Shown: positions 5,124-43,032 of the stretch, piece by piece
Position numbering within the stretch: position 1 is the stretch's first letter
Layout of the letters: each line of letters begins with the position of its first letter
Assembly: GCA_017516075.1 (NCBI GenBank)
Contig: JAFWDS010000021.1
Coordinates: 17,151 to 81,150, forward strand
DNA: 64,000 nucleotides
Reading direction: 5' to 3'
Source of the DNA: Candidatus Saccharimonadota bacterium
GTDB lineage: Bacteria; Patescibacteriota; Saccharimonadia; Saccharimonadales; Saccharimonadaceae
The notes under the pieces: generated by a model
Seen by the model: the letters and a program-made list of their open reading frames with translations, nothing else
Databases searched by the model: none
Told to the model about the DNA's origin: nothing
Made by a program: the position numbers and the translations under genes

Positions 5124-5153
5124 AAATACCCCTCGCCATGAGGGGTATTTTTT
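5124..5153. terminator. Intrinsic (probably bidirectional) terminator
   Basis: aaatacccctc-gccat-gaggggtattttt between convergent genes. Confidence 0.8.
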
Positions 5154-6444
5154 ATGCAATAATTCCCCCACCAATGCAAATCTCGCCGTCATATAATACT
5201 GCCGACTGCCCACTCGCCGGCCGCTTCACTTCGTGCTCAAAATGCAACGTTTCGCCATCAAACGTCGCAGGGATTAGGGGCGCACGATGTCTTAAGCGAA
5301 CTAAGACCTGCTTTTTCTGAAGCATAACATGATTTGAATTTTCAACACGTATATTCCTGACGTCACCGACAGGTTCGTCCCGAAGGGACGGTTCTGCCGG
5401 CTGACCAGCGTATGACGTGCTTGAAAATTCAAGTCGCGCTGAAGAAAAAGCAGGTTTAGTTCGCATAAAAACATCTTTCAGTTTTAGTTCCTTAACCCAC
5501 AAATTTTCATCATTCAGATTTTTCGACACATATACGATATTTTGCCCGACATCTTTTTTGACCACATAATACGGCAACCCATCATTTACTACGCCCTTCT
5601 CACCATCTAGATACAACCCATGCCTCTGCCCAATTGTATAAAACACCGCCCCTTCGTGAAAACCGAGCACCTTGTTGCTCTCGATTTCGCGAATCTCACC
5701 TGGTTGAGCATCGATATATTCCTTGAGAAAATCCTTCATTCCTACCTCGCCAACAAAACACACCCCCATGGACTCTTTTTTGTAAGCATTATGCAGCCCA
5801 TGCTTCTTGGCGAGCTCCTTCACCTCCGGTTTCCGCATCTCACCTATGGGAAACAAAGTATGTTCCAAAGCTTCCTCGGAAATGCGATAAAGAAAATACG
5901 TCTGATCCTTATTCTCATCTATGGCGCGCATTAGACAAGTTCGGGACGATTGCGAACTAACTGTTTGGGGGCTTCCGGAGGTTACGACCGAGGATGAGGG
6001 CGCGAGCCCCGTAACGACGGGCGCGAGCGACCCGTCCCCCAAACAGTTATGTTCGAATCGTCCTATTCTCGCATAATGCCCCGTAGCAATATAATCAGCC
6101 CCTGCCTCCATCGCTTTCTCGTAAAAGAGCTTGAATTTAATCTCTTGATTACACATTATATCTGGATTTGGCGTATTCCCGGCGCGAAACTCACGTAGCA
6201 TATATTCCACCACCTTCTCTCGATATTCTTTTTCAAAATCCCAAACGAAAAAATCAATACCGAGCTTCACTGCCACTCTCTTGGCGTCGGCCAGGTCTTC
6301 TGCCCATGGGCACTTCATGCCAGGGAGGTCTCTAGACCAGTTTTTCATATATACACCAACAACGCGATATCCTTGCTGCTTCAAAAGCAAAGTCGATACG
6401 CTCGAATCTACTCCGCCACTCATTCCAACATACGCTGTTTTCAT
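5152..6444 (-). CDS. mnmA: tRNA-specific 2-thiouridylase MnmA carrying two in-frame palindromic insertions
   Basis: SGGVDS, NPDIMCNQEIKF, ATGHYAR, KDQTYFL, KKESMGVCFVG, YTIGQRHGL, GQSAVLYDGE.C.GGG; start reassigned to ATG 6444 (MKTAYVG). Confidence 0.95.
   Translation of the reverse strand: MKTAYVGMSGGVDSSVSTLLLKQQGYRVVGVYMKNWSRDLPGMKCPWAEDLADAKRVAVKLGIDFFVWDFEKEYREKVVEYMLREFRAGNTPNPDIMCNQEIKFKLFYEKAMEAGADYIATGHYARIGRFEHNCLGDGSLAPVVTGLAPSSSVVTSGSPQTVSSQSSRTCLMRAIDENKDQTYFLYRISEEALEHTLFPIGEMRKPEVKELAKKHGLHNAYKKESMGVCFVGEVGMKDFLKEYIDAQPGEIREIESNKVLGFHEGAVFYTIGQRHGLYLDGEKGVVNDGLPYYVVKKDVGQNIVYVSKNLNDENLWVKELKLKDVFMRTKPAFSSARLEFSSTSYAGQPAEPSLRDEPVGDVRNIRVENSNHVMLQKKQVLVRLRHRAPLIPATFDGETLHFEHEVKRPASGQSAVLYDGEICIGGGIIA
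5296..5464. mobile_element. Intragenic palindromic element, family B, in mnmA
   Basis: Arms gcgaactaa(g)acctgctttttct 5296-5318 / agaaaaagcaggtttagttcgc 5443-5464; 41-bp and 73-bp blocks shared with the iscS copy. Confidence 0.85.
5945..6062. mobile_element. Intragenic palindromic element, family A, in mnmA
   Basis: Perfect 14-bp inverted repeat taactgtttggggg / cccccaaacagtta; 80-bp core (5964-6043) identical to dnaX 50649-50728. Confidence 0.9.
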
Positions 6445-6527
6445 AAGTATTATTATACCATAATATGACATAAAAATACCAAAAATCAAGTCTACTAAAA
6501 CTAACATAACCATGATATATAATAAAT

Positions 6528-8360
6528 ATGAGAAAAAGGTGTGTGCTATTTGCGATGCCAATCCCGATTATTTTGGCGATTTTTGGAATTTTGTCACAAA
6601 ACAGTGTTTTTGCTCTTACCTACTCTACCGACGTTAATGTACAGTTTACTTTTAATCCGGCTCTGCAGATAGATTTATCTTCTGCGGATCTTCTAATTTC
6701 TAATCTTTCTCCTGGCACTGCAGCTGATTCTAATGTAATAGATGTAATAGTAAAGACTAATAATATCACCGGCTATACTCTGAATGCTACAGTGGGCAAT
6801 AATACTACATATGATACCCGCGATTTAGTACATGAAGTATCTGGTTCTTCAGCTAATTTTGCTAGTATTAACTACGGCTCTAGCCTAGCTAGTCTTACTA
6901 CTGACAATACTTGGGGTTATTCTTATTCTACTGATGGTGGTACAAATTGGGAAGACTATGATGGATTGCCACTTTATAGTGATGCTACTAATATTGCTAC
7001 ACTAAAAGACTCTACTACCCCTCCTGCTACTAGTACTGGAGATGTAGTAAACTTCAAAATTGCCGCAAAAGCCAGTACTATGCAAGCTTCTGGTGATTAT
7101 AATAACGTGATTAACTTTATTGCTACAGCAAATCCTATACCCACTTTAGGTCCAGTAGCCTGCGAGAGTGGCAAAATTTGTTACAATGCTAACGTATTGG
7201 ATTCAATCGAAGTAGAAGGGACGATGGGGAAACCTACTGCAAATGCAAACACTACCACCATGCTTCTCGCATCTAACTTCAGTAGAGATGGCTATGGTTT
7301 TGCTGGTTGGAGTGATACTTACGACTATAGCGGTAACTTATATGGTCCACAGGAAGAAATCACTACTCCGGCAGATATGTCTAGCGGACTTCCGCTTTAC
7401 GCTATCTGGGTTCAATCCGCTGGCAGTATGCAGACCAGTGATGCAACTAGCGCCTGTAATAGTCTCACTGCCGCTACTCCTGGATTTAAATCTCTTGCTA
7501 GTGTCACGGCTCTTACTGATGAACGCGATGGCGAAACTTACGCCATCGCTAAACTCGCCGATGGTAATTGTTGGATGATTGAAAACCTAAGACTAGATAA
7601 TACCGCAGACCATAATTCCGATGGTACATTAGCGCAGGGTTACAATTCTAGCTTTGCTGGTCTCGCTAGCCCAGAAGCGCCATCGCTCTTCGCTAACGCA
7701 ACCACTGCAAATACTTTGTATAGTATAGATGGCTCCACCGATAAAACTATTTCTGGTAGTGATCAAGGCTACAGATTTCCACGATATAACAATGTAAATA
7801 CTCCTACTGCAGTCGCCGACAGACCGAGCAATCCCACCACTAACTCCGCAACTAATAGCACCTCAAATGCTGGCTTATATAGTTATGGTAATTACTATAC
7901 CTGGTCGGCTGCTATAGCGGACACTACGCATTATCCCACAAATAACCAATCTGTCACCAGTACTTCTATATGTCCTACCGGTTGGCGCTTGCCAAAAGGT
8001 GGCAATAAATCAAATGAGGCAAATAATGATTACTGGGCGCTTGTTGTAACTGGAATTAATGGCGGCATAAATCCATCTAATTACGATAGCGAAACTAGAC
8101 CATATTATACTAGTTCCCCTGAAGGTCCGAGTATCTCGAATGCTCTTAGAGCATACCCCAATAATATTATTTATTCCGGATATGCCGAAGGTGGTTCAGT
8201 GGAAAATCGCGGTTCAGGTGGTGGACATTGGTCGTCTACGGCGGTTTCTACTACTAATGCCTACTCTATAGTGTTTTACAGCAACTACGTTTACACGGGT
8301 ACAGGCAGTAATTCCAAGTATTTCGGAAGAACTATCCGCTGTTTTGCCCCTGGCACATAA
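6528..8360 (+). CDS. Secreted FISUMP-domain surface protein (paralog 3)
   Basis: Signal peptide, WxL-like N-domain, GYGFAGWS, LADGNCWMIENLRL, YGNYYTW, CPTGWRLP, HWSST, TIRC. Confidence 0.8.
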   Translation: MRKRCVLFAMPIPIILAIFGILSQNSVFALTYSTDVNVQFTFNPALQIDLSSADLLISNLSPGTAADSNVIDVIVKTNNITGYTLNATVGNNTTYDTRDLVHEVSGSSANFASINYGSSLASLTTDNTWGYSYSTDGGTNWEDYDGLPLYSDATNIATLKDSTTPPATSTGDVVNFKIAAKASTMQASGDYNNVINFIATANPIPTLGPVACESGKICYNANVLDSIEVEGTMGKPTANANTTTMLLASNFSRDGYGFAGWSDTYDYSGNLYGPQEEITTPADMSSGLPLYAIWVQSAGSMQTSDATSACNSLTAATPGFKSLASVTALTDERDGETYAIAKLADGNCWMIENLRLDNTADHNSDGTLAQGYNSSFAGLASPEAPSLFANATTANTLYSIDGSTDKTISGSDQGYRFPRYNNVNTPTAVADRPSNPTTNSATNSTSNAGLYSYGNYYTWSAAIADTTHYPTNNQSVTSTSICPTGWRLPKGGNKSNEANNDYWALVVTGINGGINPSNYDSETRPYYTSSPEGPSISNALRAYPNNIIYSGYAEGGSVENRGSGGGHWSSTAVSTTNAYSIVFYSNYVYTGTGSNSKYFGRTIRCFAPGT

Positions 8361-8768: not shown

Positions 8769-9220
8769 TGTTTCATAAAGTAATAAAACTAGAATATAAA
8801 GATAACGTTACTCTAGAAATGACTTTTCAAGATGGTAAAGTTATGCGTTATGACATGTCAGTTCTTTTTGATAAATATCCAGCACTTAAGGCTCTCAAAA
8901 ACAGAGATTTATTCCTGTCCGGTAAAATGAGTTCTTATGGCATCCGCTGGAACGATGATTTAGATATAGAAGCCGAAACTATCTATCAAGATGGCGAATT
9001 GGTTCGCACTACCAAACTCCCCATCAATTTTGAAATAGCCTATATGGTCAGCTCGGCAAGAGCTAAATCTGGTTTGTCGCAAGCAAAACTCTCCGAATTA
9101 ACCGGTATAGATCAAGCAGACATTTCCAAGATAGAAAACGGCTTATCTAATCCATCCATCTCTACGCTTGAAAGAATTGCAAAAGCTCTTCGGGCTGATT
9201 TGGAAATATCGATTAAGTAG
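8768..9220 (+). CDS. DUF2442 + XRE helix-turn-helix protein (putative antitoxin)
   Basis: TAATG coupling to upstream gene; L.F.DG..(Y)D...GI.W.DDLDI..E.IY N-domain; GLSQAKLSELTGIDQADISKIENGLSNPS HTH. Confidence 0.8.
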   Translation: MFHKVIKLEYKDNVTLEMTFQDGKVMRYDMSVLFDKYPALKALKNRDLFLSGKMSSYGIRWNDDLDIEAETIYQDGELVRTTKLPINFEIAYMVSSARAKSGLSQAKLSELTGIDQADISKIENGLSNPSISTLERIAKALRADLEISIK

Positions 9221-10604
9221 TCGCAGTTCTTTGCTTTTCTGCCTGAACTACATCGTTTATGATCTTCGCCGCTTCATGAATCTGGGCCTCGTCGTTAGTC
9301 TCACCAAGAGTAATACGAAGCGAACCTGCAATTTGCGAATCGGAAAGCCCTATTGCTTTTAAAACATGCGAACGCACGCCTTTAGAAGCCGCGCAAGCCG
9401 CCCCTGTAGCTACATATACTTCTTTTTCTTCAAGAAGGAACACTAATCGTTCCGCATCTATATTATTATAGCATATAACTGCAAAATTGTCAAGAGAGTG
9501 CTTCTTGTTGATAAGCTCATACCCCTGTAATTCTTCGAGCAAAATCTTGCGCCATGAAGCGTATTTTTTACGATTGCCGTTTAGATGCTCCTTAGCGAGT
9601 TCCACCGCCTTCGCAAACCCAATCACGCCTGACACGTTTTCCGTACCAGAGCGCAGCCCATTTTCCTGCCCACCACCCATGGTTAATGGCTTCAGTCTTG
9701 CGTCATGTGATACATACAAAGCCCCCACGCCTTTCGGTCCATAAATCTTAGCCGAGTTTAGAGTAAGTAAATCCACACCTAAACGTGCAACATTAATATC
9801 TAGTAGATTCAATGCTTGCGAAGCATCAGAATGCAGCAATAGCTGCTTCTTAATTCCCCGTTTCATTCTATCAATCTTAATCTCGCGAATAATCGAAGCA
9901 ATCTCCGCCATCGGCTGAATCGTCCCCAACTCATTATTCACCAGAGCCACGGATATCAACTCCGTCTCATCAGAAATCTTGCTTCGCAAATCTTTCAAAT
10001 CGATTAGTCCATTTGAAAGCACGCGAACACTCTGTCCTCCGTACCTCTCCGCAACGCGCCTGATGGAATCATGCTCTGTTTCCAGATATAACACGGAAGC
10101 GCGGGTGGCTGAAACCTGTTTTTTCGGATGCATAACATGATTTGAATTTTCAACACGTATATTCCTGACGGACCCGACCGCTGTAGGAGACGATGATACA
10201 GAAAGCTTGCTTTCTGTATCTAGGCGACGCCCAGCGGACGATTTGTTTTCGACAGGTTCGTCCCGAAGGGACGGTTCTGCCGGCTGACCAGTGTATGACG
10301 TGCTTGAAAATTCAAGTCGCGCATCCGAAAAAATAGGTTCAGCCAGGCCCTGCGCCTCGGTACTAAGGCATGTAAACGCCAAATTATTCGCCTCGGTTGC
10401 GCCAGCGGTAATGACGAGGTCGGATGCTTTGGCTCCTATCGCATGCGCTATCACTGCTTTGGCGGCTTCATAATCAGAAGCAACTTTTTTAGCCGGCAAA
10501 TACGCCGCACTTGGATTAAAAAAATCAACCGCAAAATACGGCTCCATCGCCTTCAAAACTTTTTCATTTACCGGCGTTGCAGCCGCATGGTCAAGATATA
10601 TCAT
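9213..10604 (-). CDS. iscS: Cysteine desulfurase (IscS/NifS group I) with in-frame palindromic insertion
   Basis: IYLDHAAATP, ITAGATEANN, VNNELGTIQP, HSDASQA, SAKIYGPKGVGAL, GGQENGLRSGTEN, ATGAACA. Confidence 0.9.
   Translation of the reverse strand: MIYLDHAAATPVNEKVLKAMEPYFAVDFFNPSAAYLPAKKVASDYEAAKAVIAHAIGAKASDLVITAGATEANNLAFTCLSTEAQGLAEPIFSDARLEFSSTSYTGQPAEPSLRDEPVENKSSAGRRLDTESKLSVSSSPTAVGSVRNIRVENSNHVMHPKKQVSATRASVLYLETEHDSIRRVAERYGGQSVRVLSNGLIDLKDLRSKISDETELISVALVNNELGTIQPMAEIASIIREIKIDRMKRGIKKQLLLHSDASQALNLLDINVARLGVDLLTLNSAKIYGPKGVGALYVSHDARLKPLTMGGGQENGLRSGTENVSGVIGFAKAVELAKEHLNGNRKKYASWRKILLEELQGYELINKKHSLDNFAVICYNNIDAERLVFLLEEKEVYVATGAACAASKGVRSHVLKAIGLSDSQIAGSLRITLGETNDEAQIHEAAKIINDVVQAEKQRTATT
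10107..10344. mobile_element. Intragenic palindromic element, family B, with nested 75-bp module, in iscS
   Basis: Arms ggctgaaacctgttttttcggatgc / gcatccgaaaaaataggttcagcc; inner hairpin gatacagaaagc-tt-gctttctgtatc. Confidence 0.85.

Positions 10605-32918: not shown

Positions 32919-32932
<14 letters not shown>
32369..32932 (+). CDS. queH: Epoxyqueuosine reductase QueH (DUF208)
   Basis: LLMHVCCAPCS, YNPNIHP, C..CY..RL, FTTTLLVSP, YMQKYCGCIFS; adjacent to queA/tgt. Confidence 0.9.
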
Positions 32933-35452
<2,520 letters not shown>

Positions 35453-42877: not shown

Positions 42878-43032
42878 ATTATAGCACATCGATGGGTGGC
42901 GACAACATTTCAGCGAAGGGGGGTTCGGAGCGCGGCAGCGCGAGAGGTAGCGCGCGAGCCCCGTGGCGACGGGAGCGAGCGACGCGCCCCCGAGCGAAAT
43001 GTTTCGACAGGACCCATCGAAAGTGCTATAAT
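42878..43032. mobile_element. Intergenic family A element between two divergent promoters
   Basis: Arms attatagcac/gtgctataat, tcgatgggt/acccatcga, aacatttc/gaaatgtt; core shared with tatD and tgt copies. Confidence 0.85.

Follow-up and report, generated by a model that had tools for sequence, protein, structure and literature searches.

In-frame selfish palindromes are a textbook peculiarity of Rickettsia, and palindromes can themselves be the targets of other elements: IS1397 and ISKpn1 are insertion sequences with a transposase whose specific target is the loops of enterobacterial palindromic units (bacterial interspersed mosaic elements or repetitive extragenic palindromic sequences, BIMEs or REPs). 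The Rickettsia palindromic elements (RPEs) are selfish palindromes carried in frame by housekeeping genes (Ogata et al. [quoted passage not shown] REPs occur inside larger palindromes and inside genes, including tRNA pseudouridine synthase genes, and the CGTC class of REPs has no dedicated transposase (Di Nocera et al. 2013, PMC3733652). Here we describe a structured repeat of about 75 nt, termed M, found in a 64,000-nt stretch of DNA (the window) from a Candidatus Saccharimonadota bacterium, positions 17151-81150 of contig C14 (JAFWDS010000021.1, assembly GCA_017516075.1). The window contains two copies of M, in iscS and queA, each nested within another palindromic element that itself lies within an intact gene. 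M is probably a selfish, structure-defined repeat of the kind represented by RPEs and REPs, one that nests in other palindromes and is common in this genus of Saccharibacteria. The genome (G000; 0.92 Mb in 37 contigs, 96% complete) has gut and rumen metagenome-assembled genomes (MAGs) of Candidatus Saccharibacteria and Nanosyncoccus as its nearest named relatives.

The two copies were recognized as expansions within elements of two GC-rich palindrome families, A and B. In iscS (9213..10604, minus strand), which encodes a class-V aminotransferase of 463 aa, the family-B element at 10109..10342 (plus strand) is a multi-layer nested hairpin whose flanks CCTGACG and CGACAGG close around a 79-nt module at 10171..10249 (plus strand; covariance-model core 10174-10240). 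The family-B copy in the intact mnmA open reading frame (ORF; 5152-6561, minus strand) lies at 5301..5459 (plus strand), has near-identical arms and provides the empty reference state, with TCAC (5363-5366) in place of the 79 nt between CCTGACG and CGACAGG. In queA (32919..34211, plus strand; 430 aa), which has two insert sites, the first site consists of a family-A element (33266..33405, plus strand) in which a second 79-nt module at 33300..33378 (plus strand; core 33302-33368) fills the loop of a CCCCGT..ACGGG hairpin. The ordinary loop of this family is 4 nt, as in the copy CCCCGT-GGCG-ACGGG at 42916..42990 (plus strand), the empty reference here, and in six further family-A hairpins of the window (near 6008, 12212, 33880, 34816, 50693 and 55443). 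Both expansions replace 4 nt with 79, a net gain of 75 nt; these lengths and positions had been given in the initial annotation of the window and were borne out for both families. The sense strand of the module is the plus strand in each case, and the iscS copy is therefore antisense to its gene (translation ENKSSAGRRLDTESKLSVSSSPTAVGS), while the queA copy is sense to its gene and is translated into 27 residues.

The two inserts had also been described as mutually similar, with covarying stems and distinct central hairpins. Chance likeness between GC-rich hairpins could in principle account for such a resemblance, since both modules are hairpin formers of this kind, and a global alignment yields 46 identical columns of about 80. 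However, the alignment score of 52 compares with 30.7 +/- 4.8 in 2000 dinucleotide shuffles (z = 4.5), and was matched by 2/2000 of these shuffles and by 2/3000 GC-matched genomic 79-mers. The outer stems of the two modules covary, and each module contains a perfect 11-bp central hairpin, ATACAGAAAGC/GCTTTCTGTAT in iscS and AAAGAACGAAC/GTTCGTTCTTT in queA, whose sequences are unrelated. Nor is the iscS module an artefact of assembly, because independent unitigs from two unrelated metagenome studies (runs X1 and X13) span it, covering 10138-10279 with 0 or 1 differences. Together with the further matches to the covariance model in this genome and the hundreds of copies in congeners, these results refute an explanation by chance or misassembly.

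The search of the genome for additional copies, on which the idea of a repeated module had been made to depend beforehand, returned four close copies by blastn and 14 copies by a profile search followed by a covariance model (R1), with E-values down to 6e-20. The two close copies that are additional to iscS and queA both lie just outside the window. One, at C14:14472-14550 in a gene for an rluB-like pseudouridine synthase, shares 97% identity with the queA copy and fills the CCCCGT..ACGGG loop of another family-A copy; the other, in trmD (C14:4912-4986), is 88% identical to the iscS copy. Four of the 14 copies are nested in A or B elements inside genes, two of them antisense to the host gene. 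One more overlaps the 3' end of efp (C26:14031-14111, minus strand) and provides the last five codons (YRSRR) and the TAA stop of the gene, the stop falling inside its AGGAGATAAG box. The remaining nine are intergenic, and stand-alone copies of the module, which the initial annotation had suggested looking for, accordingly exist.

As single-stranded DNA or RNA, M folds into one long helix. Reading inward from the 5' end, it consists of a paired but freely varying stem of about 6 bp (P1), UA opposite GCC as an asymmetric small internal loop, GGAG opposite CGAC, one covarying base pair, CGAG opposite CGAG, and a terminal hairpin of 10-12 bp whose sequence is free and is unrelated between M subfamilies; a mini-hairpin, CGAC-TTTA-GTCG, lies 3' of P1. 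In our reading of the sequence, the GGAG/CGAC and CGAG/CGAG boxes can each be written as C-G / G.A / A.G / G-C, and would then form putative tandem sheared G.A pairs. None of the ten best copies departs from the motifs AGGAG, CGA and CGACG.CC. The core has GTAG before it in seven of ten copies of the genome and GACG after it in all, but the palindrome exceeds the 20-40 bp of a REP and has a further stem around it. The ends of M are inverted, (T)CGAC...GTCG(A), and the repeats at its junctions vary (CGAC, CG or an offset TCGA).

The fold is supported by base changes within and beyond the genome. Within this genome, RNAalifold finds compensatory changes in 12 of the 16 pairs. For 27 distinct copies that belong to other genera, the proportion of paired cells is 95% and double changes appear in 14/16 pairs, as compared with 37-48% pairing when the partner columns are slid, although this alignment was fitted to the covariance model and so somewhat favours the structure. 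The iscS copy with its host flanks folds better than shuffled sequence (z = -4.7), and the CCTG..CAGG of the host closes the fold. Selection on the fold could act at the level of RNA or of DNA, and the two are inseparable here because there is neither a strand bias (M is sense on the G-poor strand in 9/14 copies; this 9:5 ratio, examined as the replication-strand bias that single-strand transposition would be expected to leave, is not significant) nor a clear excess of G.U pairs (14) over A.C pairs (8).

M is rare within the elements that contain it. Genome-wide, 30 CCCGT-N-ACGGG hairpins have a 4-nt loop and two have a 79-nt filling (2/32), and only 2/13 family-B cores are filled, one at a 5' site and one at a 3' site. 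The 3' site is that of trmD, where the host element is a family-B relative with its TCAC position untouched and M lies further 3', between ..GTATGAC and GTCGAAGA; relative to an empty paralogue at C14:6660-6865, the insertion is exactly 75 nt with flanks that are 98% identical. Among congeners, queA site 1 is empty in seven of nine, and one congener has a family-A copy there with an intact CCCCGT-AACG-ACGGG loop. The iscS site is occupied in orthologues by a loop of variable length, which is empty in several and carries other, unrelated inserts in others. Because M occupies three kinds of site, occurs in two element families and also outside both, and because the filled state is rare, we conclude that it was added secondarily to older A and B elements.

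The converse would be that M was an original part of full-length A and B elements and that the 4-nt loops are deletion derivatives produced by replication slippage. The short direct repeats that flank M (CGAC, CG) could mediate precise deletion, family-A-like elements of one congener (G093) often contain one or two M modules, and in-frame indels of sub-hairpins do occur between strains (33 nt in the second queA insert). However, deletion is hard to reconcile with the two different positions that M takes in two B subfamilies and the third kind of site that it takes in family A, with the low proportions of filled A hairpins and B cores, or with M at nine tRNA genes and efp where there is no A or B context. 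Moreover, the B-hosted M copies are 88% identical to each other, as against 98% between the host element in trmD and its empty paralogue. An origin of the empty state by deletion is therefore quite improbable, and secondary insertion of M is the reading followed below.

The insertion sites share a short, CG-rich palindromic context, and at every one of them the host helix closes around M. The progenitor of the iscS copy was likely a variant, GACGGACC^CGACAGG, that is found in two other B copies; starting from this variant, the iscS insert would be exactly 75 nt with a 4-nt CGAC junction repeat. In queA the junction ambiguity is CG, and in trmD the cut is at the centre of GAC^GTC, the junction of two element layers. 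The microhomology at the junctions is CG-rich throughout (CGAC, TCGA or CG), and the T-loop GGTTCG^A of tRNA copies, discussed below, is of the same character. These details modify the proposal that the module targets loops. It holds for the family-A hairpin and for tRNA T-loops. It does not hold for the GAC^GTC junction in trmD, nor in a simple sense for family B, a four-layer nested hairpin in which TCAC lies in the long 5' arm (GTCA pairs with TGAC) and not in the apical loop, although a local alternative hairpin, CCTGACG-TCAC-CGACAGG, would make TCAC a loop.

Searches of related genomes with the same covariance model reveal a patchy distribution. M is present in 16 of 61 genomes that represent the family with one genome per genus, and in 32 of 41 congeneric genomes, with 0-30 copies per genome; the most M-rich congener, with 30 copies, is G093, in which many family-A-like elements carry one or two M modules. 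Copies in other genera are intergenic and conform to the consensus ATTATAACAC-TAGGAG-NCGAG-..-CGAG-NCGACG-..-GTGTTACAT. M has no conserved syntenic home locus across congeners, and the tRNAs that host it belong to at least 15 isoacceptors across genomes and differ between genomes. Patchiness, a copy number that varies widely and sites peculiar to single lineages are the mark of a repeat that is, or recently was, mobile. The notion of a second mobile unit thus stands in so far as M is an independent element nested secondarily in others, as the nearly identical empty paralogue and the low filling of A and B sites indicate, and its distribution is the basis on which it is taken to be mobile.

The initial annotation took other element families to be the targets of the module, and in this it did not identify the main site of M in the genome, which is the tRNA trailer. 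Every one of the nine intergenic copies has a tRNA gene on the same strand 6-160 nt upstream of it, the tRNAs being Arg-tcg, Ala, Tyr, Val-cac, Val-gac, Leu-gag, Asn, Arg-gcg and Glu-ctc; co-oriented positions 6-160 nt 3' of tRNA genes make up about 0.4% of the strand-positions of the genome. In six of the nine, M is followed by 9-19 nt that repeat the 3' end of that tRNA, from within the T-loop to CCA. The typical unit begins with the tRNA, a hairpin that is either terminator-like or an element of about 100 nt, and a strand complementary to the T-stem, and continues with the hairpin GCGAGAACCGTAGGTTC(G), M, a 9-bp hairpin and the tRNA 3'-end copy. Such a unit folds as a tRNA-like four-way junction that ends in an acceptor-3'-CCA (z = -7.7), with M at the T-loop position (GGTTCG^A) of the duplicated T-arm. 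The direct repeat of the tRNA 3' end bounds only the tRNA-linked copies, not the nested 75-nt copies. In relatives, a duplicated tRNA 3' end was found at 10/22 tRNA-linked copies, the clearest being tRNA-Leu..ACCA-GGGTTCG-M-hairpin-GATTCCCTTCCCGCCCACCA.

Duplicated tRNA ends are not confined to M. For at least 12 of the 46 tRNA genes, the 3' end of the gene recurs exactly, over at least 13 nt (13-26 nt, from the T-loop to CCA), within the 450 nt downstream (examples at C19:17370-17436, C31:8255-8340, C30:84436-84502 and C1:1220-1312). Eight of these copies lack M and instead have small hairpins of the AGAGAGCTTGCTCTCT type and upstream pairing strands, together forming an acceptor/T-arm minihelix. 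One of the duplications is a pseudo-tRNA-Thr(ggt) at C31:21565-21660, immediately behind the true gene, which keeps an intact T-arm and acceptor 3' end but has inserted hairpins filling the D loop and taking the place of the anticodon loop.

The link to tRNA genes raises the possibility that M exists primarily for a function, as a structured RNA or protein-binding site, for example a tRNA-trailer element, and that the copies inside genes are accidental captures. Nine of nine intergenic copies are co-oriented with the adjacent tRNA gene, the tRNA-linked units fold as a tRNA-like junction, and in one genus all three copies begin at the CCA end of a tRNA, P1 containing the CCA. The invariant internal-loop nucleotides and the covarying stems across genera, the resemblance of a tandem-G.A helix to protein-recognition motifs such as k-turns, and the presence of M in most genomes of the genus would likewise be expected of a functional RNA. 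Such a function fits poorly with a copy number that ranges from 0 to 30, with the complete absence of M from 9/41 congeners, and with the lack of conserved synteny. It also fits poorly with the details of the loci: a terminator-like hairpin with a T run separates the tRNA from M in four of the nine cases, two of the four in-gene copies are antisense, and in one genus P1 overlaps a TTGACA-17-TATAAT box, so that P1 could not form in the RNA. Nor is there the clear G.U excess or the Rfam match that one might hope for; in a search of nine M-bearing loci with Rfam 15 (E up to 1), only tRNA scored meaningfully, and a known RNA family was rejected on this basis. Taken together, a primary function as an RNA or protein-binding site is unlikely, and a selfish repeat remains the better account of M.

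The overlap with promoter-like sequence was seen at loci L041, L057, L066 and L142 (from other genera and G093), where the 5' strand of P1 is a TATAAT box with TTGACA 17 bp before it. At the same loci a partial second copy, TATAATGG-AGGA, lies 3' of M and directly upstream of a start codon. M may duplicate or carry promoter and ribosome-binding sequences.

We infer that M moves, or has moved, as a selfish element and that it is recognized as a folded hairpin. In this reading, a minimal M of 75 nt was inserted at the DNA level into GC-rich A and B palindromes that already lay in frame inside housekeeping genes; selection retains the in-frame copies and removes the rest, and inserts grow by nesting. 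A host or foreign factor acting in trans, or template switching during replication, has to be assumed here, because there is no element-linked transposase and only one tyrosine recombinase. A bolder and decidedly tentative version is that an undescribed, structure-guided process writes M into CG-containing loops or junctions of other hairpins, namely the T-loops in tRNA 3'-end copies and the sub-hairpins within older palindromes. The element would need no transposase of its own in this case; template switching might do the work, or the one tyrosine recombinase of the host with folded single strands as its substrates. If this version were true, structure-guided insertion would build tRNA-like decoys and protein surface loops layer by layer.

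Several results weigh against M as a selfish mobile repeat. The genome contains no Y1/RAYT transposase (PF01797; RAYT, REP-associated tyrosine transposase), reverse transcriptase or serine recombinase, its one tyrosine recombinase (C26:2011-2544) lies away from M units, and its only GIY-YIG domains are parts of long ORFs (591 and 468 aa), with no small nuclease of this type. There is no consistent target-site duplication of fixed length, the junction repeats being 4 nt (CGAC), 2 nt (CG) or an offset TCGA. No presence/absence polymorphism was caught in Logan unitigs, which are broken at repeats, or in related strains, whose coverage is low; the unitig joints in which 75 nt are skipped are most likely those of other B copies. 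The two M-bearing family-A copies have M sequences that are 97% identical and identical junctions, which makes their independence doubtful, and spread of a composite A+M element or gene conversion may have occurred instead of two insertions. Finally, the conservation of the internal loops across genera and the strict co-orientation with tRNAs also fit a functional RNA or protein-binding site.

Several candidate mobilizers and origins were considered and rejected. RAYT or IS200/IS605 transposition finds no Y1 gene in the genome; among the 41 congeners, Y1 genes occur in two, including the most M-rich one, and these belong to ordinary IS200 elements with unrelated end hairpins and no M at their ends. 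For mobilization by a reverse transcriptase, a serine recombinase or a small GIY-YIG nuclease, no candidate was found in the genome. No parent insertion sequence with M-like ends was detected in the genome or in the flanks of M copies in relatives, and no integrase or ORF was found in the tRNA-linked units of 130-250 nt. An apparent M-associated gene in relatives, namely frames of 531 and 532 aa across two M copies, proved to be a stop-to-stop artefact, both copies being intergenic. A phage origin gained no convincing support from IMG/VR: of the 18 matches to a pattern scan, only two scored, weakly (E about 0.002-0.004) and in a chance-like manner.

The closest described systems resemble M in behaviour. 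As RPEs are presented in the MITE review (PMC10969869), both they and M are dispersed palindromes that lie in frame in unrelated housekeeping genes with the ORF intact, are readable as added peptide loops and also occur in non-coding DNA, both lack an associated transposase, both inhabit the small, reduced genome of an obligate symbiont, and both count genes for tRNA-modifying enzymes among their hosts. M differs in being half the size of an RPE, in characteristically nesting in other palindromes and in strongly preferring tRNA trailers and T-arm copies. The likeness is one of behaviour, RPEs being elements of Rickettsia and M an element of a different phylum, Saccharibacteria in the candidate phyla radiation (CPR). 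M is unlikely to be an RPE by descent because the organism is a Saccharibacterium.

Comparable likenesses and differences apply to the other systems. M partly resembles the GTAG and CGTC REPs as a short structured palindrome with a conserved tetranucleotide at the foot of the stem (in M, GTAG on the 5' side in 7/10 copies and an invariant GACG, the complement of CGTC, on the 3' side). It differs from REPs in its longer core (about 47 nt), its two putative tandem-G.A motifs, its additional covarying stem and 3' mini-hairpin, and its link to tRNAs. It is not a REPtron, because the genome has no RAYT; not demonstrably a MITE, because there is neither a parent insertion sequence nor a fixed target-site duplication; and not an integrative element, because there is no integrase. 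Like integrative elements at tRNA 3' ends, the tRNA-linked units have a tRNA at one boundary and, at the other, 9-20 nt that repeat its 3' end from the T-loop onward, but they measure 130-250 nt, lack an integrase, are spread over at least 15 isoacceptors, and have M inside a duplicated T-arm rather than between att repeats. With IS1397 and ISKpn1, M shares the targeting of palindrome loops; it differs in that it is 75 nt long, non-coding itself and readable in frame. The architecture of conserved internal loops and a variable terminal hairpin is reminiscent of the folded recombination sites attC and attP of CTX phage, although no R/L boxes and no integron integrase were identified. The literature search found no paper linking Saccharibacteria with MITEs, and broader searches returned only work on REPs, RPEs and MITEs.

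At the protein level, the inserts have grown in Russian-doll fashion, as the initial annotation had suspected: the four nested copies (iscS, queA, trmD and the rluB-like gene) each add 25 codons with the frame kept and the ORF intact. The GC-rich repeat inserts split the Pfam domains of iscS, mnmA and queA, all three of which are intact ORFs, and QueA has 430 aa as compared with 332-335 aa in insert-free congeners. Nested M is read in two frames, giving ..SSAGRRLDTESKLSV.. in antisense and a 25-residue stretch in sense; the predicted M-region peptide of IscS is SSAGRRLDTESK. The frame is kept because 75 nt equals 25 codons and because three or four of the six frames are open in each M copy, insertions being tolerated in dispensable surface loops. 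Preservation of the frame is seen in four genes, and selection acting on a unit of fixed 75-nt length, rather than a property of the insertion mechanism, is its simplest explanation.

The composite B+M insert corresponds to IscS residues 83-166, with a helix of the conserved fold on one side and a strand on the other. AlphaFold gives this segment a pLDDT (predicted local distance difference test) score below 35 and no secondary structure, whereas the neighbouring core elements are well predicted; the model is moderate overall (mean pLDDT 63, from an alignment of 19 sequences). The inserts form long loops, probably disordered, in essential enzymes.

Protein inserts of at least 80 residues have thus been assembled stepwise from 25-codon hairpin units in an ultra-small CPR genome. 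As compared with the in-frame palindromes of Rickettsia, the twist is that a second, smaller module nests within first-generation elements. M connects the repeats inside genes with a tRNA-trailer structure that had not been described before, in which a copy of the T-arm has the module in its loop, and this suggests that both habitats follow a common target logic based on hairpin loops. In more practical terms, M is specific to the genus or family, conserved, and highly variable in copy number, and strain typing could make good use of it as a marker for these reasons; assemblies of Saccharibacteria MAGs are also frequently broken by it.

The genes that host M (iscS, queA, trmD, the rluB-like gene and efp; mnmA carries a B element) all function in tRNA, rRNA or translation, and genes of these classes are also many of the hosts of A and B elements. 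Target choice could lie behind this pattern, as could tolerance or no more than the set of genes that a minimal genome contains. The surface loop of IscS (window 10107-10350, compared at loci L010-L034) is an insertion hot spot across Saccharibacteria: in other species it contains unrelated inserts of 10-45 residues, and in two genomes a family-A-type peptide, SLAPVVTGL.

Family B, compared at window 5301-5459 and 10109-10342 and at C14:4850-5125, C14:6660-6865, C29:5900-6050 and C12:6430-6640, is itself a Russian doll. A conserved core, GTATATTCCTGACG..CCAGYGTATGAC, is enclosed by alternative next-outer stems of either the TTGAATTTTCAA type or the GGGACAATTTCCGG..CCGGTCCCG type, and the innermost hairpins are interchangeable. 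An in-frame indel polymorphism of a sub-hairpin is seen in the second repeat insert of queA, where a related strain (run X18) has a contig that differs from the window at several bases over about 430 nt and lacks 33 nt (11 codons) at window 33853-33885.

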